Shown here: piece after piece, positions 18,979-39,427 of the stretch
Position numbering within the stretch: the stretch's first letter is position 1
How the letters are laid out: every line of letters begins with the position of its first letter
Source of the DNA: Clostridia bacterium
GTDB lineage: Bacteria > Bacillota > Clostridia > Christensenellales > UBA1242
Assembly: GCA_017531805.1 (NCBI GenBank)
Contig: JAFXKG010000006.1
Location: 21,395-85,394, forward strand
Direction of reading: 5' to 3'
DNA length: 64,000 bases
Position numbers and translations under genes: made by a program
The notes under the pieces: model-generated
Database searches by the model: none
What the model was told of the DNA's origin: nothing
The model's input: the letters and a program-made list of their open reading frames with translations, nothing else

Positions 18979-18989
18979 AACTTGTGATA

Positions 18990-19018
18990 TTGACAATTAG
19001 TTGCTTGTGTGTTAATAT
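18990..19018 (+). promoter_or_regulatory. sigma-70 promoter
   Basis: TTGACA (18990-18995), 17-nt spacer, TAATAT (19013-19018). Confidence 0.5.
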
Positions 19019-19034
19019 TCTAACAGGTAAAAGT

Positions 19035-19334
19035 ATGGGTAAAAAATTCTCAAAAAGTAACAATAAATTACAAATTTTAAGCACTTTTGATAAGCATACA
19101 GCAACCAAGTTAGTTTCTGTGTTAAGCAGTCAAGGGATAAAATCTAACTATTTTTTTAATAATAGTGAATATGTTTTAGAAATTAAATATTATGATTTAA
19201 AGAAAGCTATTGAAATTTTGGCTTATTGCATAACAAAAAAGGATTTTAAAGTATATTGTTGGCTTGCACCATATTGGCAACAATATGCTCCAGAGTTTTG
19301 GCAAAAACGCAATGAAGACATTAACGAGGTTTAA
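19035..19334 (+). CDS. hypothetical protein (99 aa)
   Basis: Start moved to the ATG at 19035 because the promoter lies within the track's N-terminal extension. A terminator follows at 19336-19366. No family recognised. Confidence 0.4.
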   Translation: MGKKFSKSNNKLQILSTFDKHTATKLVSVLSSQGIKSNYFFNNSEYVLEIKYYDLKKAIEILAYCITKKDFKVYCWLAPYWQQYAPEFWQKRNEDINEV

Positions 19335-19451
19335 AATTATCCACTTTGTTGTGGATATTTTTTATTTAAAATCAACCACACTTTTCAAGTAGATATCTTT
19401 ACATTTTATGCAAAATAACATATAATTTTATTATAGGAACATAATAAATCT

Positions 19452-20282
19452 ATGGGAATAAAAAATTTTTTTGATTTAAGAAAAATAAAAAAATTTAGGA
19501 AAAAGCACAAAATTGGATTATGTCTTAGCGGTGGTGGTGCGCGTGGTTTTTCGTATATTGGTGTTTTTAAAGCCTTAGAAGAAAACGGTATAAAATTTGA
19601 TATGGTTGCAGGTACCAGTGTGGGTAGTTTGTTTGGTGCGCTTTATGCGTCTGGTATGACAGTTGAAGAAATGGCTGAGAAAGCAAAAAATATAAAAAAT
19701 AAGGATTTCAGAAACTCAAAACTTGGTTTTTTGCCATCAAAAATGGATAGATTGTCTGAAACTCTAGATAATGTATTGCCTGCTAAAAAGATAGAAGATT
19801 TGCAAATGCCATATTATGCAGTTGCAGTAGATTTAAGAACTGGTAAAGAAATACATTTTAATGAAGGTAATTTAACATCTATTATAACAGGTAGTTGTGC
19901 AATACCAGGTGTATTTGTGCCAGTAAAGTATAAAAATATGCTGTTGGTTGATGGTGGTGTGTCTAACAATATTCCAGCAGATGTTTTAAAGTCTAATGGT
20001 TGTGATTATGTTGTGACCATAGATTGTAATTGCACTCGCGGTGGTGGAACAAATAGTAATAGTTTAATAACTCAGTTTTTTACCAGCGTCGGCATAATGA
20101 TGGTAAACAACTCTAAAAAAGGTCATAAATGCAGTGATGTCCTTGTGTGTCCTGATATGAAAAGATTTAATTCTTTAAAGATTATTGATAAAGAAGAAAT
20201 GATAAAAGAAGGATATAAAGCAACTATGGAAAAGATGCCTGAAATTAAAAAATTGTTTGCAGGTAAAATTGATAAAAAATAA
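19452..20282 (+). CDS. patatin-like phospholipase
   Basis: Oxyanion GGGARG, nucleophile GTSVGS (GxSxG) and catalytic DGG (LLVDGGVSNNIP). Confidence 0.85.
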   Translation: MGIKNFFDLRKIKKFRKKHKIGLCLSGGGARGFSYIGVFKALEENGIKFDMVAGTSVGSLFGALYASGMTVEEMAEKAKNIKNKDFRNSKLGFLPSKMDRLSETLDNVLPAKKIEDLQMPYYAVAVDLRTGKEIHFNEGNLTSIITGSCAIPGVFVPVKYKNMLLVDGGVSNNIPADVLKSNGCDYVVTIDCNCTRGGGTNSNSLITQFFTSVGIMMVNNSKKGHKCSDVLVCPDMKRFNSLKIIDKEEMIKEGYKATMEKMPEIKKLFAGKIDKK

Positions 20283-21316
20283 TGACAAAACAACAAAAGA
20301 TAAAAAATTTAATTATTTCTTTAATATTTATAATGATTTTTTCATTATTTGGTGTTTTTTATGCAAATATTAATTTAAAAATAAATAATTCGTTAGCAAA
20401 TAATTTTAATTTTGTTAGTGTTAAAAATTCTTTGATGGTTCATTTTGTTTCGGTTGGACAAGGCGATGCTGTTGCAATAAACTTGCCAGATGATAAAATT
20501 ATGCTTATAGATTGTGGACCAGAAAGTTGTAACACAAATTATACACAATATTTGCAAGATACGGTTTTAAACACAAAAAGGGATAAAGTTATTGATTATC
20601 TTGTTTTAACTCACTCAGACTTAGATCATATCGGTGGAGCATTAAGACTGTTACAAAATTTTGCTGTTAAAACTATCTTTATGCCAGTAATGGTAGAAGA
20701 AACAGATTTTTATCTAGAGTTTAAAAGTATAGTTGATGCTAAAAATTATAATCAAATACAAATCGAAAATGGTTTAAACTTATCTACAAATAATTACAAG
20801 ATAGATTTTTATGTTTCAGATTTAGCAACAGAAGAAAATGATTTGTGTCCAATAATAAAATTAAATTATTTAAATAAAACTTTTTTGTTTACGGGTGATA
20901 TAAGTTCAGCAGTAGAAACTGAGATGGTTAACAAAATAGGCAATACTCTTGATTGTGATGTTTTGAAAGTGGCGCATCATGGCAGTAAATACTCTACAAG
21001 CATGGACTTTTTGACCCATACAACGCCACAATTCGCAGTTATTTCTTGTGGACAAAATAGTTACGGTCACCCAACTGCAGAGGTTGTCAATAATTTACAA
21101 TCGTGTGGTGCAAATATTTTGCGTACTGATATAAGTGGAAATATTGCATTTGTTGTTAACAATCAACTTAACTTAAAAGTTTTAAGCGGAAGTATAAAAA
21201 CGACAGGCATGTATTTGGATATCAGAATTTTAATTGTTGTGCTTGATTGTGTTATTTTAATAAACGGAATCACACTCTTTTTAAGAAAAAGCAAGAAGAA
21301 AAAACATGCAAGATAA
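20282..21316 (+). CDS. ComEC/Rec2-related metallo-beta-lactamase-fold membrane protein (MBL domain only)
   Basis: TAATG overlap with the patatin gene. Contains VHFVSVGQGDA, LVLTHSDLDHIGG and LKVAHHGSKYS. TM helices at both ends. Confidence 0.8.
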   Translation: MTKQQKIKNLIISLIFIMIFSLFGVFYANINLKINNSLANNFNFVSVKNSLMVHFVSVGQGDAVAINLPDDKIMLIDCGPESCNTNYTQYLQDTVLNTKRDKVIDYLVLTHSDLDHIGGALRLLQNFAVKTIFMPVMVEETDFYLEFKSIVDAKNYNQIQIENGLNLSTNNYKIDFYVSDLATEENDLCPIIKLNYLNKTFLFTGDISSAVETEMVNKIGNTLDCDVLKVAHHGSKYSTSMDFLTHTTPQFAVISCGQNSYGHPTAEVVNNLQSCGANILRTDISGNIAFVVNNQLNLKVLSGSIKTTGMYLDIRILIVVLDCVILINGITLFLRKSKKKKHAR

Positions 21317-32497: not shown

Positions 32498-32863
32498 ATG
32501 TGCGAAAAAGAAAAGATTTATGGACAAATTTTACCTAACTATTACTTTATAATAAAAATACTTCAAGATTTAGGCATAACAAAAAAGTATATGGGTTTTT
32601 ATTATTTGGCAGAAATTTTAAATTTACTTATTAATGAAGATTTAAAGATAAGGTCTTTTTCAAGGCAGGTTTATCCTATGCTTGCATCAAAGTATAACAA
32701 AAACAGCTGTACTATAGAGCGTGATATCAGAAATGTTATTTCAAGATTTTGGGATGAGCAATTAAAAAATAAACTCAAACTTTTTTGGGATAGGGAAGAT
32801 ACTCCAAGTTGTTGTGAGTTTATTTATATTTTAAAAAATTATTTAGTTATGCAAATTGCTTAA
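32498..32863 (+). CDS. stand-alone Spo0A C-terminal (DNA-binding) domain-like protein, no receiver domain
   Basis: LGITKKYMGFYYLAEIL...VYPMLASKYNKNSCTIERDIRNVISRFW parallels Spo0A-C (GVPAHIKGY.YLREAI...LYPDIAKKF.TT.SRVERAIRHAIE.AW) as I recall it. Confidence 0.55.
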   Translation: MCEKEKIYGQILPNYYFIIKILQDLGITKKYMGFYYLAEILNLLINEDLKIRSFSRQVYPMLASKYNKNSCTIERDIRNVISRFWDEQLKNKLKLFWDREDTPSCCEFIYILKNYLVMQIA

Positions 32864-33255
32864 AAATTTGCTAAAATATATGCTTTAAGTACTCTTATTT
32901 TATTAAGTGTACTTTTTTTATTTAAATTAAATTGAGCTTTAGAAAATATATCTTCGTTATTGCACATTTTAATTAATTTGTTTAAACCGCAAGTTATTGC
33001 TCTGTTTGTGATAGCATACTTTTCTTGTAAAATTGCGATAGCTTGGTTGTATGTTTCGGTAGATTCGTTGTCTTGTTTTATCATATATGTAATAATAAAA
33101 GAAAGATATTCAAAAGCGTTGTATCTTTCGTTCATGCCTAAAGTGGACAATAACACATTTACTTTGTTATTAATTAAATTTATTGACAGATTTGTAATTT
33201 GGTTTTGCATATTTATATTGTAATATAAATTATAAAAAAAATCAATATTTTTCAA
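32860..33255 (-). CDS. second Spo0A-C-like small protein (more divergent)
   Basis: LGMNERYNAFEYLSFIITYM...AIAILQEKYAITNRAITCGLNKLIKMC follows the same pattern. It is convergent with the previous gene (4-nt overlap) and divergent from the TasA-like gene. The start codon is uncertain (TTG 33255 or ATG 33210). Confidence 0.4.
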   Translation of the reverse strand: MKNIDFFYNLYYNINMQNQITNLSINLINNKVNVLLSTLGMNERYNAFEYLSFIITYMIKQDNESTETYNQAIAILQEKYAITNRAITCGLNKLIKMCNNEDIFSKAQFNLNKKSTLNKIRVLKAYILANF

Positions 33256-36805: not shown

Positions 36806-37066
36806 TTAATAACGCTTTCTACAACAATCGCATTTTTGATATTTATCATAATCATTGTCATTATATCTGTCAAAATGTTTTTGTTTACACGGTACAGTTC
36901 TAATGCAATATTCTATAGTTGTTTCCCAACAAAAGCGTTGTTTGTGACAATTATCTTCTTTTTTGCGATCATAATCTTTATCGTTGCGACACCAAACTTC
37001 TGGGTAACAGCATACTTCTTGTCTTATGTCTTTGTTGTAATCGTTATCATTATATCTATCGTACAT
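36806..37066 (-). CDS. small Cys-rich protein (11 Cys) with terminal DRYNDNDY(N/D)K repeats
   Basis: The AAGGAG RBS favours the ATG at 37066. The D/N/K/Y/C-rich composition is reminiscent of spore coat/exosporium Cys-rich proteins. Confidence 0.45.
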   Translation of the reverse strand: MYDRYNDNDYNKDIRQEVCCYPEVWCRNDKDYDRKKEDNCHKQRFCWETTIEYCIRTVPCKQKHFDRYNDNDYDKYQKCDCCRKRY

Positions 37067-37220
37067 TTGCATCTCCTTATTTTTACAGCATCAAATTGAT
37101 GCCTACTACATGGTATTAAAAAAATAAAAAAATGGTTAATCTTTTAAAATGATAACAAAAAATTATAAATAAAACTTAATCTAGATAATTAATCATATGT
37201 ATATTTTATTATCTGTAAAA

Positions 37221-37252
37221 ATAAAAAAATGTGCCCGACCATGTCAGACACT
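37221..37252 (-). terminator. intrinsic terminator of the tRNA operon (minus strand only)
   Basis: The hairpin at 37231-37251 pairs perfectly only as minus-strand RNA (two G-U pairs). A U7 run follows. Confidence 0.7.
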
Positions 37253-37256
37253 TTCG

Positions 37257-37333
37257 TGGTAGAGATGAGTGGACTCGAACCACCGACCCCCACCTTATCA
37301 GGGTGGTGCTCTAACCTGCTGAGCTACATCTCT
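37257..37333 (-). tRNA. tRNA-Ile (anticodon GAU), CCA encoded
   Basis: Hand-folded cloverleaf: AGAGATG TA GCTC AGCAGGTTA GAGC A CCACC CTGATAA GGTGG GGGTC GGTGG TTCGAGT CCACT CATCTCT ACCA. It has an unusual A1-U72 pair. Confidence 0.9.
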
Positions 37334-37462
37334 TTAAAAAATTTTGTTTTTAAGACTTTATCAACTGTCTTAGCACCCAGATAAGGTTATTCTTCGCCTT
37401 GATAAATCAAGTCGCCCACCTTAACTCGTGCAAGCACGAGGTGCGTTCGCTTTGCTCGGCAA

Positions 37463-37497
37463 CAGGGTGGTGCTCTAACCTGCTGAGCTACATCTCT
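37463..37497 (-). pseudogene. duplicated 5' half of tRNA-Ile (positions 1-34), no matching 3' half
   Basis: 35/35 nt identical to 37299-37333. Identity stops after anticodon base G34. No T-arm occurs in the following 129 nt. Confidence 0.75.
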
Positions 37498-37566
37498 TGG
37501 TGAAGAATAATATATTCTCTGCACTTTGTGCTGGTGGAGAATAATTCCATTCTCTGCACCTTGTGC
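37498..37566 (-). repeat. two tandem 34-35-nt repeats that each regenerate the tRNA-Ala 3' acceptor strand plus CCA
   Basis: On the minus strand: GCACAAGGTGCAGAGAATGGAATTATTCTCCACCA, then GCACAAAGTGCAGAGAATATATTATTCTTCACCA. They sit directly between tRNA-Ala and the tRNA-Ile fragment. Confidence 0.8.
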
Positions 37567-37643
37567 TGGTGGAGAATATCGGGCTCGAACCGATGACCTC
37601 CTGCTTGCAAGGCAGGCGCTCTAGCCAACTGAGCTAATCCCCC
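37567..37643 (-). tRNA. tRNA-Ala (anticodon UGC), CCA encoded
   Basis: GGGGGAT TA GCTC AGTTGGCTA GAGC G CCTGC CTTGCAA GCAGG AGGTC ATCGG TTCGAGC CCGAT ATTCTCC ACCA. The G3-U70 identity pair is present. Confidence 0.92.
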
Positions 37644-37733: not shown

Positions 37734-37763
37734 TAAAAAAAGTTTCTGACCTAGATCAGAAAC
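37734..37763 (-). terminator. intrinsic terminator of the Rho-like gene
   Basis: Stem GTTTCTGA (37742-37749) / TCAGAAAC (37756-37763), with the stop codon in the loop. A U7 run follows on the minus strand. Confidence 0.75.
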
Positions 37764-38791
37764 ATTTTATCGTTTTCTATTTTATAGCGCTTGTCTGCAA
37801 GTTTTTCTATCAAATCAATGGTTTTGTTGTTCGCGAAAATTGCAAACAATGTGATACTGCCATTACTGCTTGCTTTTGCAACAGAGATAAGATTTTTAGT
37901 GTTGGTCAAAATTTCATCATCAACACTTGCAACAGAAATTGCATCGTCAACCGCAATGGCAACATGTTCGCCATTTTCCATAAGTCGTTTTGCGTATTCT
38001 GTGGCAATGTTTACTATCCTTCTTGCTGTATCAGGTGTATCAGTTATATTGGCAACAAATTTTTCCGCGTCTTGCAAATCGTCTAAAAAGAGTTTGTTTT
38101 TTTCTGCGATTGTAACATTTATATAAATCTTTTTTGTGGCATTGCATTTGTTTAAAATGTTGATTATGTTTTGAGTGTTTTCGTTGTTGTTTGTGCCATA
38201 AAAATATGCGTTTTCACCAAACTTAATATCAAGATTGTCGATATTGATTTTTTTATTTGGCGCAACTGGTTTTATTGCGTAATAATTGGTTCTTTCCTTA
38301 TTAAATTTTTTAATAGGGCAACCGTTGATGTTAAAGATATCCTTTACAACCAACTGATTATTTACATTATTAAATTCAAAAGTGACATAATCGCCAGATT
38401 TGATGTTGTAATTGTTGAGTAAAATTGTTGGAGTATAGTAGCAGGTTGTACATTCTTTTATGCACCAGATATAAGAAGTGTTTTGGTTTAATTTTTCCAC
38501 AAAACCAGCACCAGTTTTTACATCATCATAACTAAAAGTTTTGTTTTGGTTAAGCGACATAGTATTGTCAAATGTAGGAGTGGTGTTTAAGATGTCAAAA
38601 GAATAACCAAAATACTTTGGCGGGCGTCCTTGTTTTGTTGATGCTTGTGGTGCACGTTTACCTGCATTTATTTCTAAAATTTCGTGTATTAATTGGGCTT
38701 TTTTCTTGCTTGTAGGCGTTGCCACGCCAGTTTTTCTGGCCAATTCTCTAAGGGTAAAAATGCTATATTCGTTTAATTCTTTTTCTGTCAT
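37751..38791 (-). CDS. Rho-derived protein: Rho_N-like helix, CSD-like region and RecA-like core lacking the Walker-A P-loop, C-terminally shorter than Rho
   Basis: FTLRELARKTGVATPTSKKKAQLIHEILE (Rho_N-like). GAGFVEKL..IKSGDYVTFEF (Rho RNA-binding-like). TARRIVNIATEYAKRLMENGEHVAIAVDDAISVA resembles the Rho core, but the P-loop position reads YGTNNNENT. Start set at the ATG at 38791 (AGGTG RBS). Confidence 0.6.
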   Translation of the reverse strand: MTEKELNEYSIFTLRELARKTGVATPTSKKKAQLIHEILEINAGKRAPQASTKQGRPPKYFGYSFDILNTTPTFDNTMSLNQNKTFSYDDVKTGAGFVEKLNQNTSYIWCIKECTTCYYTPTILLNNYNIKSGDYVTFEFNNVNNQLVVKDIFNINGCPIKKFNKERTNYYAIKPVAPNKKINIDNLDIKFGENAYFYGTNNNENTQNIINILNKCNATKKIYINVTIAEKNKLFLDDLQDAEKFVANITDTPDTARRIVNIATEYAKRLMENGEHVAIAVDDAISVASVDDEILTNTKNLISVAKASSNGSITLFAIFANNKTIDLIEKLADKRYKIENDKMFLI

Positions 38792-38806
38792 ATTAACACC
38801 TATTTT

Positions 38807-38868
38807 TGTCGAAATCATGATACCATAATATAATTTGCTTGTAAAGTATTTTTGTAAAAAATTCGACA
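38807..38868 (-). promoter_or_regulatory. putative promoter of the Rho-like gene bracketed by inverted 0A-box heptamers
   Basis: On the minus strand: TGTCGAA (38868-38862), 16 nt, TTTACA (38845-38840), 17 nt, TATCAT (38822-38817), gat, TTCGACA (38813-38807). Confidence 0.45.
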
Positions 38869-38877
38869 TTTTTGAAT

Positions 38878-38906
38878 AAAATAAAAAACTAGGCGGTTAT
38901 GCCTAG
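38878..38906 (-). terminator. intrinsic terminator of mazF
   Basis: Stem CTAGGC (38889-38894) / GCCTAG (38901-38906). A U-run follows on the minus strand. Confidence 0.7.
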
Positions 38907-39236
38907 ACTTATCAATATTGCAATGTCTACTTTTTGCATTGTGTCTTTATCAAGGGCACAAACAAGGTCTTTTAGCCTGCGCTTGTCAAGAGTTCGTATT
39001 TGCTCAAGAAGAACCACACTGTCTTTTTCTAAATTAAATTTATCTTTTTTTAGTTCTATGTGTGTAGGTAGTTTGGCCTTGTCTAATTGACTTGTGATTG
39101 CGGCGATAATGACAGTGGGGCTGTATTTGTTGCCAACATTGTTTTGCACAACCAAAACAGGGCGTATTCCGCCTTGTTCACTGCCAACAACTGGGCTTAA
39201 GTCTGCATAGTAGATATCGCCACGACTAACTTCCAT
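38889..39236 (-). CDS. mazF: MazF/PemK (EndoA-type) toxin endoribonuclease
   Basis: [48 protein letters not shown] is a near-canonical MazF/EndoA sequence. Confidence 0.9.
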
Positions 39237-39427
39237 TATTCTCCTTTAAGATATTTAAGCGAAATGTCAAAATCATCAATTTGGTCAAAATCTTGCATGA
39301 TGTCATGTATTGCGCAAAGATATTCATTGTCAGTATATGCAGAACTCGAAAATCTTGGTATATATGGTTTTTTAACTTCTTTAAAAGTATCCATATATTT
39401 GATGTATTCTTCAATTTCTTCTCTCAT
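39236..39427 (-). CDS. putative cognate antitoxin, acidic 63-aa protein with no recognisable RHH or AbrB fold
   Basis: AAGGAG RBS. TAATG overlap with mazF (translational coupling). Acidic C-terminus ([16 protein letters not shown]). Confidence 0.45.

Follow-up and report, generated by a model that had tools for sequence, protein, structure and literature searches.

Introduction

Rho is an ATP-driven ring helicase, and it is debated how much of its biology is owed to translocation and how much to the binding of RNA and RNA polymerase. In P-loop NTPases, loss of the Walker A lysine abolishes hydrolysis, and in the hetero-hexameric F1 and V1 ATPases the non-catalytic subunits have degenerate nucleotide-binding sites. 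A literature search for a described "pseudo-ATPase" Rho returned none, and a 2025 review of Rho does not mention degenerate or Rho-like forms. A survey of 2730 RefSeq genomes reported "Rho-like" sequences in 421 species, e.g., Conexibacter woesei and Baekduia soli, that consist of a single Rho domain or of the N-terminal domain together with the RNA-binding one; these have been catalogued without being characterised (Moreira et al. 2024, NAR 52:8979; PMC11347177). According to the same survey, many members of Bacillota encode no Rho at all. In Bacillus subtilis, Rho and Spo0A~P are parts of one regulatory circuit (PMC11599450). Here we describe a Rho-derived protein from a family in uncultured Christensenellales that has kept the three-part Rho architecture and lost the motor.

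The gene and its product

The gene is located on the minus strand of the window (the whole 64-kb stretch of DNA that was analysed) at positions 37751 to 38791 and encodes a protein of 346 amino acid residues plus a stop codon. The original prediction had extended it to position 38868; the end at 37751 stands, whereas positions 38792 to 38868 comprise the promoter and the 5' leader and are not coding. The longest open reading frame in this region begins at the ATG at 38869. The true start is the ATG at 38791 (MTEKELNEY...), because a ribosome-binding site, AGGTG, is found 5 nt upstream of it (38797 to 38801, minus strand), it is the start of all 35 aligned homologues, and a product of 346 residues was also called independently on the source contig. 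An NCBI entry with a 100% identical sequence is named [quoted passage not shown]

Relationship to Rho

The sequence similarity of this protein to Rho is far beyond chance. A profile of the family retrieves Rho chains from the PDB with E values from 1.3e-13 to 3e-9 (1.3e-13 and 5.7e-12 among them), and one of these alignments covers the OB fold, Walker A, and Walker B in a single run. The TIGR00767 (rho) model is matched by 36 of the 36 aligned members, with a best E value of 1.7e-15 and with all scores far below the cutoff; the window protein itself scores 27.9 bits (cutoff, 509) against this model and 30.8 bits (cutoff, 315) against NF006886. In a Foldseek search with an AF2 model of the window protein (pLDDT 84.5), the best 50 PDB matches were all Rho (E of ~3e-16, TM score of 0.64), superposing at ~3 A over ~300 columns. 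A few family members also match the Pfam "TOTE S1/CSD" and "ATPase_2" entries, which we attribute to generic OB-fold and P-loop-fold similarity.

The profile, structural, and sequence comparisons thus agree with the original prediction of a Rho-derived protein without a P-loop and extend it to a whole conserved family. The segment pairings noted there by eye were reproduced: GAGFVEKL and YNIKSGDYVTFEF pair with GDGVLEIL and FNLRTGDTISGKI of the Rho OB fold, TARRIVNIATEYAKRLMENGEHVAIAVDDAISVA pairs with a Rho helix and Walker B, and NGSITLFAIF pairs with GGSLTIIATAL. At the Walker A position, GENAYFYGTNNNENT is aligned with GQRGLIVAPPKAGKT of Rho with identical spacing. The protein ends at approximately residue 347 of Escherichia coli Rho, so that the earlier estimate of a 100-residue shortfall was approximately right: ~70 residues are missing at the C terminus and ~15 to 17 in a deletion of the Q-loop.

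Domain architecture and loss of the motor

Residues 1 to 42 (38666 to 38791, minus strand) form a Rho_N-like helical subdomain, recognised by Pfam, by the AF2 model (helices 3 to 7, 11 to 21, and 31 to 42), and in the family alignment. The match to Rho_N (PF07498) has an E value of 4e-4 and a score of 20.7 bits, just below the gathering threshold of 24.9, and 29 of 36 members match at an E value of ≤0.01, in line with the helix proposed initially. Conservation within the protein is highest here (dN/dS of 0.05). The subdomain is followed by an invariant basic motif, G..(.)P....K(Q)GRPPK, at residues 43 to 59 (38615 to 38665, minus strand; dN/dS of 0.03 in the family alignment), whose Lys-flanked GRP core resembles an AT-hook. 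A variable linker, residues 60 to 90 (38522 to 38614, minus strand), is predicted to be disordered (pLDDT of <50) and leads to an OB fold homologous to the primary RNA-binding domain of Rho, residues 91 to 160 (38312 to 38521, minus strand), which is supported by profile, structure, and alignment, with β-strands across residues 92 to 155 in the AF2 model. The Rho_RNA_bind domain (PF07497) is matched by 18 of 36 members. Among the residues of the primary binding site (PBS), the equivalents of F64 and Y80 are aromatic, that of R66 is Trp, and those of E108 and Y110 are not conserved. The site is only partly kept, and no other folded part of the protein is under less constraint than the OB fold, so that the ability to bind RNA may have changed or disappeared.

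The nearly invariant residues 1 to 59 (dN/dS of 0.03 to 0.05), compared with an OB fold at 0.26, would suit a protein that mainly binds DNA, as a transcription factor or in association with the nucleoid, and for which the Rho-derived body serves only as a scaffold. The SAP/HeH-like Rho_N helices and the AT-hook-like motif would then act on an AT-rich genome (32.6% GC); weak Fan1_SAP matches in three members point the same way. However, fully canonical Rho proteins of related Christensenellaceae bear the same basic motif (e.g., RRGRPPK), which argues that it is older than the loss of the motor and, in those proteins, has a Rho function that involves RNA or the transcription complex. We therefore regard a mainly DNA-binding role as unlikely.

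The RecA-like core, residues 191 to 346 (37754 to 38221, minus strand; dN/dS of 0.15), is homologous to the Rho ATPase domain by profile and structure and is devoid of the Rho catalytic set. PF00006 gives a weak match in the window protein and none at an E value of ≤0.01 among the 36 members. The degenerate Walker A, GENAYFYGTNNNENT (38174 to 38218, minus strand), follows the family consensus GENxYxYGxNNNxNT. The window protein has YGTNNNENT, and YGxNNNxNT is found in all members; of the GxxxxGK[ST] residues K181, K184, and T185 of Rho, Thr alone is kept and Asn replaces K184, and an intact GxxxxGK[ST] is absent from every family member in the alignment. The original prediction of a lost P-loop lysine is therefore correct, and the loss is wider than it had stated. 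In the catalytic stretch, IAEKNK stands opposite IDERPEE of Rho (E211 and R212), so that most members retain the Glu and Lys takes the place of the Arg valve, in an alignment that shifts by 1 or 2 residues between methods. The Q-loop (K283 and T286) is gone, the segment that matches YNTVVPASGKVLTGG having been deleted. The equivalent of the R-loop TGSKMD (K326) is NNK-T-ID, with the Lys out of register. The SGTR motif occurs in no family member, and the chain stops after the strand that matches NMELHL, without the Arg finger R366 and the C-terminal helical subdomain. With Asn in place of the Walker A Lys, the Q-loop deleted, and a chain too short to include the Arg finger and C-terminal helices, the protein is predicted to be incapable of acting as a Rho-type motor.

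Other features of the site are conserved. The length of the P-loop is kept, G192, Y198, and G199 are invariant, N202 and N205 are conserved in at least 90% of the sequences, and D282 and D283 of the Walker B-like strand VAIAVDD (37943 to 37963, minus strand) are invariant. With the Glu in the catalytic position, these residues could mean that a nucleotide or ligand chemistry of some kind persists. The same residues, together with the terminal Thr, could even be taken to mean that nucleotide is still bound, and perhaps hydrolysed, through the Asn-rich P-loop in an NTP-dependent switch or motor. However, with the Walker A Lys missing from all members, and the Arg finger, the Q-loop, the R-loop Lys, and the C-terminal subdomain gone as well, we consider this very improbable.

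Phyletic distribution and selection

The family comprises ~120 sequence clusters, all of 340 to 375 residues with an intact open reading frame. The species that carry the gene number at least 35 and are low-GC Christensenellales of the gut ("Ca. Onthoplasma" and its relatives). The gene is under strong purifying selection in these species: dN/dS for the whole gene is 0.04 to 0.15, and the alignment of 36 members has 35 invariant columns. The promoter, the ribosome-binding site, the Spo0A (0A) boxes, and the terminator (see below) are all kept among the orthologs. The lineage has a low GC content and appears streamlined, sister lineages display a graded decay of Rho, and Rho has been lost altogether in many Bacillota (PMC11347177), all of which would be expected if the gene were a nonfunctional relic of rho heading for deletion. 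However, in ~120 clusters and at least 35 species the frame is intact and the length does not vary much; combined with the low dN/dS, the invariant columns, and the conserved signals, this leads us to reject relic status, which the selection data effectively refute.

The same profile matches 980 clusters (at 50% identity) with E values of ≤1e-10, and neither DERPEE nor SGTR is present in the best 150 of these 980 clusters. Hundreds more degenerate homologues of Rho come to light in metagenomes with this profile.

Origin of the gene

The N-terminal sequence GVxSPTSKKK...GRPPK is shared by canonical Christensenellaceae Rho proteins and the present family, and descent from the Rho of the local lineage appears to be the best explanation for it. 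The genomic context of related forms bears on whether the gene is the rho ortholog itself or a copy of it. Short or degenerate Rho forms at three loci (L051, L057, and P0175) lie after veg-sipL-spoIIR-sleB-ypeB, which is the site of canonical rho at locus L054. Another degenerate form (P0183) comes after DUF1934-MBL, the same position as that of canonical Christensenellaceae rho, and at loci L041, L046, and L056 such a form follows veg-sipL and precedes spmB-spmA. The spmAB genes are also found within 3 to 4 kb of the gene family described here. The locus of the latter, with mazF upstream, is unlike the ancestral rho context, and orthology consequently rests on a chain of synteny. Since the degenerate forms occupy the ancestral rho locus and proximity to spmAB is shared, a decayed rho ortholog is more likely than an additional paralog; the word "paralog" in the original prediction was probably wrong, the synteny in sister lineages pointing to a rho ortholog that decayed in situ. 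The presence of several degenerate homologues at the ancestral locus also suggests that the conversion of the motor into a pseudo-enzyme is a recurrent route in reduced, low-GC Clostridia.

The departure of the locus from the classical rho context would also fit a non-catalytic paralog that cooperates with, or opposes, a canonical Rho whose gene lies in another part of the genome, and the window organism may carry such a rho beyond the 64 kb. The paralog could be an inactive subunit of mixed rings, like F1 alpha or V1 B, with whose hetero-hexameric ATPases it shares the fold family and a weak PF00006 match; alternatively, it could compete for rut RNA or RNA polymerase and tune Rho-dependent termination under Spo0A control, given that its best-conserved part, the N-terminal module, is the one that in Rho contacts RNA and the transcription complex. 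However, seven independent degenerate forms at the ancestral rho position argue for replacement rather than duplication, and it is doubtful that a protein without the Arg finger and the C-terminal part of the inter-subunit interface would take its place in a Rho ring in an orderly way. Furthermore, tblastn searches with five canonical or short Rho proteins detected no second Rho homologue in the 64-kb window, and no second Rho-like gene was found in 35 family loci of ~20 kb each. A working partnership with, or antagonism to, a canonical Rho therefore seems rather unlikely.

No assembly had two loci with the N-terminal motif, which might suggest the absence of canonical rho; however, among 120 canonical relatives of Rho the motif as scanned occurs in just 4, and this argument was dropped. 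A database search with the canonical Rho from locus L045 returned 5617 matches, whose names were uninformative and could not be linked to assemblies. A patatin-MBL gene pair follows the Rho-like gene at locus L061 and in the window follows secA and a 116-residue open reading frame; as a sign of an "empty" rho site, it was set aside since it rests on one comparison.

Genomic neighborhood and transcription signals

As originally described, the gene lies between mazF (upstream) and tRNA-Ala and tRNA-Ile genes (downstream). ARAGORN with introns allowed finds only these two normal tRNA genes and no intron-containing tRNA between them. The gene has its own sigma-A-type promoter, TTTACA and TG-n-TATCAT with a 17-nt spacing (38845 to 38817, minus strand), and its own intrinsic terminator, a 9-bp stem followed by TTTTTTT that overlaps the stop codon (37763 to 37742, minus strand), both of which had been anticipated. 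The -35 region is contained in a TTTTTGTACAAAAATACTTTAC motif that is kept upstream of many orthologs. It had also been claimed that nearly every gene in the window has a strong terminator. A hairpin with a T-run is found at 31 of 55 gene ends; most ends of transcription units do have one, so that "nearly every" holds only roughly, and the reduced reliance on Rho that had been read from these terminators is only weakly addressed by this count.

The association with mazF is common among the family loci. However, it is broken or inverted at loci L013, L016, and L023, and at L010, L014, L015, and L022 an XRE gene stands in between. Because synteny breaks in this way and each gene has its own signals (mazF a separate terminator, the Rho-derived gene a separate promoter and terminator), we interpret the adjacency as inherited gene order rather than a module. 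Functional coupling with mazEF and a toxin-antitoxin module with the adjacent mazF, for which there is no obligate operon with mazEF, were both rejected. The same applies to an origin as a defence system or from a phage, as PADLOC defence-system models had no match for the gene and an IMG/VR search revealed no viral relatives of the protein.

Spo0A boxes at the promoter

The promoter is bracketed by inverted TGTCGAA boxes, as had been observed from the start. The upstream box (38862 to 38868, minus strand) lies 16 nt upstream of the -35 hexamer, and the downstream one (38807 to 38813, plus strand) lies between the -10 element and the ribosome-binding site, over the predicted transcription start. 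These are more than a plain inverted repeat: both match perfectly the Spo0A-box consensus TGTCGAA, which is used in Clostridia (PMC3485338), and only five such boxes occur in the entire window. Upstream regions of orthologs (31 regions of 140 nt) contain 26 TGTCGAA boxes versus 0.31 expected from the flanking 530 kb, an 84-fold enrichment whose P value ignores the relatedness of the species. Across species, the boxes lie on either side of the promoter or over it. These conserved consensus boxes suggest that the gene belongs to the Spo0A regulon. Because they overlap the core promoter, control would probably be by repression. Inspection of the 64-kb window revealed no full-length spo0A; a stand-alone, receiver-less Spo0A_C gene is found at 32498 to 32863.

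Proposed function

We propose, with a probability of roughly 50%, that the protein is a Spo0A-controlled, ATP-independent nucleic-acid-binding pseudo-helicase, that is, a catalytically dead, C-terminally truncated descendant of the lineage's own Rho. It keeps the three-part Rho architecture of Rho_N helices, OB fold, and RecA-like core; presumably unable to hydrolyse ATP or to thread RNA, it would take no part in classical Rho-dependent termination. As an ATP-free factor, it would bind nucleic acid, most likely RNA, through a near-invariant N-terminal module that comprises Rho_N, the basic GRPPK motif, and the OB fold, and possibly it still touches the transcription complex. As for the RecA-like domain, which is remodelled yet conserved, it may serve as a scaffold, an oligomerisation module, or a ligand pocket. 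Expression would be controlled by Spo0A or by the nearby receiver-less Spo0A_C protein, which would keep the gene within the Spo0A-Rho circuit known from B. subtilis. RNA binding, the oligomeric state, and the lack of ATPase activity are predictions from the sequence, and the earlier designation "RNA-binding regulator" appears to be a reasonable one.

A more far-reaching version, possible but considerably more tentative, is that this protein is the sole Rho homologue in "Ca. Onthoplasma"-like Christensenellales, an ATPase-dead, ring-incompetent ortholog under direct Spo0A control that still acts on transcription. Its invariant N-terminal module could bind nascent RNA and/or RNA polymerase-NusA/NusG and could thereby bring about or block pausing or termination with no translocation involved. 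Within a large and unrecognised radiation of Rho derivatives that have no motor, the family would be the best-conserved tip. If true, pseudo-helicases would emerge as a new class of transcription regulators, and translocation-independent ("allosteric") functions of Rho would have a natural test.

For the proposed pseudo-helicase, the loss of the motor in a family that selection keeps in at least 35 species suggests that the Rho scaffold has a function independent of ATP, one that can be tested directly with one small protein. The family is an evolutionary motor knockout that has long been kept by selection, with an almost frozen N-terminal module, and the conserved Spo0A boxes would tie it to the switch to sporulation and stationary phase, in parallel to the B. 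subtilis circuit. Surveys would score these genomes as "Rho absent" or, by weak matches, as "Rho present," both of which are misleading.

Comparison with known systems

The structures of canonical Rho from E. coli, Mycobacterium tuberculosis, and Thermus thermophilus share with the family the domain order and the fold, including the connector, and differ from it in the motor features, i.e., the Walker A Lys, Q-loop, Arg finger, and C-terminal helices, all of which the family lacks. The short Rho forms (Group B of D'Heygere 2013, Type 4 of Moreira 2024, and the NF041509 paralog_Rho2 "short form") are also ~360 residues long. However, they have lost the N-terminal domain and kept the ATPase, whereas the present family shows the reverse, its N terminus being kept and its motor lost; the window protein scores 19.2 bits against NF041509 (cutoff, 628). 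As a working analogy, F1 alpha and V1/A1 B have the same PF00006 RecA-like fold with a degenerate nucleotide site and are kept as structural or regulatory subunits. In contrast to the present protein, which is additionally truncated and has no known partner, they form obligate hetero-hexamers with a catalytic subunit. The "Rho-like" sequences of the 2024 survey (PMC11347177) are defined by a detectable N-terminal and/or RNA-binding domain and the absence of a functional Rho ATPase domain, a description that applies to the family as well, although these uncultured Christensenellales are outside the RefSeq genomes on which that survey was based. What distinguishes the family from them is a recognisable and conserved remnant of the ATPase domain, purifying selection, a place in the rho lineage supported by synteny, and the Spo0A boxes at its promoter.

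Homology to Rho

The minus-strand open reading frame (ORF) ending at position 37751 of the window encodes a protein that, as judged by profile searches and a structural model, is derived from Rho. It is identical to the database entry [quoted passage not shown] Single-sequence matches are weak, with E values of 4e-4 for Rho_N, 0.019 for ATP-synt_ab, and 0.016 for T. thermophilus Rho (phmmer); the NCBIfam rho models give 1e-7 but only 28 to 31 bits, against curated cutoffs of 315 and 509. The close relatives number about 120 (90% clusters), every one 340 to 375 aa long, and a family profile built from 36 of them matched the PDB Rho chains of M. tuberculosis (1.3e-13), T. thermophilus (5.7e-12), and E. 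coli (~3e-9) in an alignment that spans the OB fold, Walker A, and Walker B without a break. The canonical Rho model TIGR00767 was matched by all 36 members (best, 1.7e-15), Rho_N by 29, and Rho_RNA_bind by 18. An AlphaFold2 model computed from the alignment (pLDDT, 84.5; pTM, 0.71) confines disorder to residues 60 to 85, and its best 50 PDB matches are all Rho (E of ~3e-16; TM, 0.64; ~3 Å over ~300 columns). The original prediction of a Rho-derived protein with a lost P-loop was thus largely supported: profiles, model, and column alignment all bear it out, similarity to Rho being significant in the profile and structure checks that the note had proposed, and each resemblance noted by eye was recovered in a MAFFT alignment with E. 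coli Rho.

The range first assigned to the gene, 37751 to 38868, contains this ORF, whose longest reading begins at ATG 38869. The sequence signals place the true start at ATG 38791 (MTEKELNEY...; 346 aa), because this codon has an AGGTG ribosome-binding site 5 nt on its 5' side, all aligned homologs begin at its Met, and the source contig (ENA ERZ28018841; 135,478 bp) carries a gene call of 346 aa as well. The remaining 78 nt of that range lie upstream of the gene and are regulatory DNA.

Loss of the motor

Aligned with E. coli Rho, whose residue numbers are used here, the protein has lost the whole motor and not the Walker A lysine alone. Walker A, GQRGLIVAPPKAGKT in E. coli, reads GENAYFYGTNNNENT, with K181 and K184 both replaced by Asn and the Thr retained. 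The segment with the catalytic Glu and the Arg valve (LLIDERPEE) reads IYINVTIAEKNK; the Glu is retained in most members, and the Arg is changed to Lys. Walker B (DVIILLDS) reads HVAIAVDD, with an invariant DD, the Q-loop (YNTVVPASGKVLTGG) is deleted, and the strand that follows it (GGSLTIIATAL) reads NGSITLFAIF. The end of the chain lies just past the counterpart of the NMELHL strand, near residue 347; the protein therefore has neither the Arg finger (R366) nor the C-terminal helical subdomain. The motifs GK[ST], DERPEE, and SGTR were sought across the family members and found in none. Given these losses, and judged by what is established for P-loop and RecA-family motors, the protein would be unable to hydrolyze ATP at a Rho-type intersubunit site or to grip RNA in the central channel.

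Conservation and selection

The gene is not a dead one. The ORF is intact and constant in length across 35 species-level genomes, the alignment has 35 invariant columns, and the closest pairs have Nei-Gojobori dN/dS values of 0.04 to 0.15. That we are looking at a relic of rho is therefore highly improbable, being contradicted by these selection data. Constraint differs between regions: dN/dS is 0.05 in the Rho_N helices, 0.03 in the basic motif that follows them, G...P...K(Q)GRPPK, 0.15 in the RecA-like domain, 0.26 in the OB fold, and 0.24 in the linker. The altered P-loop region is itself kept across the family as GENxYxYGxNNNxNT; that it serves some leftover nucleotide chemistry at this Asn-rich loop is nonetheless very unlikely.

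Distribution of degenerate Rho forms

The focal family was found only in low-GC (27 to 38%) MAGs labeled as “Ca. Onthoplasma,” “Christensenella,” or uncultured Clostridia and obtained from chicken, human, rabbit, and ruminant guts. The genome scan that yielded these MAGs, with GVx[SA]PTSKKK as its key, additionally recovered fully canonical Rho proteins of 480 to 550 aa from higher-GC Christensenellaceae, which carry SPPKAGKT, DERPEEV, and SGTR/SSTR. The distinctive N terminus, including RRGRPPK, is common to both, so the focal family descends from the local Rho.

Other degenerate forms show different patterns of damage. These include six proteins of 303 to 382 aa in related genomes (loci L036, L041, L046, L051, L056, and L057) and two homologs from the protein profile search, P0175 (L062, 8001 to 9416; 471 aa), which has lost the P-loop Lys and retains DER and R366, and P0183 (L061, 8001 to 9392; 463 aa), which retains GKT and has E211A and R366Y. 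In a “Ca. Scatosoma” sp. MAG (L060, 9953 to 11458), Rho is full length (501 aa) and its P-loop is intact (SSPKAGKS); it carries E211Q and R212L (VDQLPE) and is devoid of the Arg-finger motif SGTR, by its sequence another, different route of Rho inactivation in a related lineage. Searched against the protein library, the family profile matched 2196 representatives at E≤1e-3 and 980 at E≤1e-10. Among the best 150 of the 2196 matches (340 to 490 aa), DERPEE and SGTR are absent, any GK[ST] motif occurs in 11, and nearly all are without the Walker A Lys. More distant matches exceed the Pfam thresholds for Rho_RNA_bind and ATP-synt_ab, and all matches in the subset whose source was checked come from uncultured samples. 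These patterns suggest that motor-less derivatives of Rho form a large radiation, as yet undescribed.

Genomic context

The window is ordinary chromosome (32.6% GC) with genes for pyruvate:ferredoxin oxidoreductase, tex, rpoB, rpoC, uvrB, rpsI, and rplM, and no link of the focal gene to a defense system or phage was found. The gene had been described as an independent unit between mazF and tRNA genes, with its own terminator and a promoter bracketed by inverted TGTCGAA boxes, and all of these could be located by coordinates. A sigma-A-type promoter (TTTACA-17-TGnTATCAT; 38845 to 38817, minus strand) is flanked by TGTCGAA heptamers at 38862 to 38868 and 38807 to 38813, and a 9-bp hairpin with a T-run (37763 to 37742, minus strand) closes the unit. 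Upstream lies a PemK/MazF gene (38889 to 39236; E=8e-37) with its own terminator, and downstream are tRNA-Ala(UGC) and tRNA-Ile(GAU).

Several neighboring features deserve a record. A 63-aa acidic ORF (39236 to 39427, minus strand) shares one base with the start of mazF and is conserved at 29 related loci; it has no Pfam match and does not resemble the usual RHH/AbrB MazE families, but presumably encodes the cognate antitoxin. The tRNA spacer (37299 to 37576, minus strand) holds an exact duplicate of the first 35 nt of tRNA-Ile, up to the anticodon loop (37497 to 37463), and two or three repeats of the tRNA-Ala 3' end, TTCTCCACCA plus GCACAA(G/A)GTGCAGAGAAT (37576 to 37498). These could be an integration or recombination scar; ARAGORN with introns allowed finds two intact tRNA genes only. 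Antisense to tRNA-Ile and its terminator runs a match to the Helicobacter antisense RNA HPnc0260 in Rfam (37141 to 37295, plus strand; 57.8 bits, just below the gathering score of 59), probably a tRNA-driven artifact. An 88-aa Cys/Asp/Tyr/Lys-rich ORF (36806 to 37072, minus strand), with a DRYNDNDY(N/D)K motif toward each end and multiple CC/CxxC pairs, has no Pfam match and no homolog in related loci and could be either a spurious ORF or the gene for a small spore-coat-like or redox peptide.

Gene order bears on the origin of the family. In L054, canonical rho comes after veg-sipL-spoIIR-sleB-ypeB, and exactly this position is held by the short forms of L051 and L057 and by P0175, which follows spo0A...veg-sipL-spoIIR-sleB-ypeB. 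P0183 comes after DUF1934-MBL, and canonical Christensenellaceae rho likewise follows an MBL gene. In L041, L046, and L056, the order is veg-sipL, the degenerate gene, and, further along, spmB-spmA; focal-family loci have spmA-spmB-arsP_2-DUF2383-c6-mazF before the gene, and in the window the gene and tRNAs are followed by arsP_2, spmB, and spmA. This chain of synteny speaks for in-place decay of rho on several occasions and makes it probable that the focal gene descends from the ancestral rho locus, i.e., is an ortholog. A canonical rho could still be co-resident in these genomes, and the focal protein could then be its noncatalytic partner or antagonist, a reading that we consider unlikely. 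Elsewhere in the window (18984 to 21316, plus strand), a patatin gene (19452 to 20282) and an MBL-fold gene (20282 to 21316) are syntenic with L061, where the Rho-like gene lies directly upstream of the pair; the window has secA and an unannotated 116-aa ORF there. As a single comparison, this is not taken as evidence for a vacated rho site.

Spo0A boxes at the promoter

TGTCGAA is the core Spo0A (0A) box in Bacillus and C. difficile (PMC3485338). The whole window has five copies (5.9 expected), i.e., no overall enrichment, and two of the five flank the focal promoter. Upstream regions of 140 nt at 31 orthologs hold 26 boxes, where the surrounding 530 kb would predict 0.31, with at least one at 17 of the 31 loci. 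Their placement differs by species (upstream of −35, in the spacer, or between −10 and the ribosome-binding site), which argues for selection on the boxes and not mere inheritance. Overlap of the boxes with the core promoter and start site suggests repression. B. subtilis has a regulatory loop between rho expression and Spo0A~P, with rho dropping on entry into stationary phase (PMC11599450); the decayed gene appears either to have stayed in this circuit or to have joined it.

A candidate reader of these boxes is a receiver-less Spo0A_C protein (32498 to 32863, plus strand; 121 aa; Pfam E=3.5e-20) encoded 5 kb from the focal gene; it adjoins the family locus in 27 related loci, retains the ...ER.IR..I...W helix of Spo0A, and may act without phosphorylation. 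Convergent with it is a second such gene (32860 to 33255, minus strand; 131 aa), a weak match (E=0.0066).

The promoter also has a second conserved element, TTTTTGTACAAAAATACTTTAC, with the palindrome TTGTACAA (38840 to 38865, minus strand), just upstream of the −35 hexamer and including it. It is found upstream of the gene in L007, L010 to L012, L014 to L017, L020, L022, and L033 and is present in many orthologs without perfect TGTCGAA boxes.

Proposed role and comparison with known Rho forms

We favor, at a probability of about 0.5, a Spo0A-controlled RNA-binding factor that possibly also binds RNA polymerase. Such a protein would work ATP-free through its frozen N-terminal module, with the RecA-like body as a scaffold, oligomerization module, or ligand pocket. 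The OB-cleft aromatics equivalent to F64 and Y80 are retained, and removal of the N-terminal basic residues of E. coli Rho is cited as abolishing RNA binding (PMC11347177). The same N-terminal region, with HeH-like helices and an AT-hook-like motif, could instead bind DNA, which strikes us as quite unlikely.

Moreira et al. (2024) defined “Rho-like” sequences as having N-terminal and/or RNA-binding domains and no ATPase domain and put them aside, in 421 of 2730 RefSeq genomes, as nonfunctional Rho (PMC11347177); degenerate or Rho-like forms do not come up in a 2025 review of Rho. The focal family, previously undescribed, fits this loose category. So long-conserved a motor-less Rho, with a wider radiation of such forms, would surprise a specialist and gives direct access to Rho functions that do not depend on translocation. 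The protein lacks the catalytic features that define Rho and should not be annotated as such; it is a conserved Rho pseudo-helicase, with a putative function as outlined here. The short “Group B/Type 4/Rho2” forms are missing the N terminus and keep the motor, whereas the focal family is the reverse.
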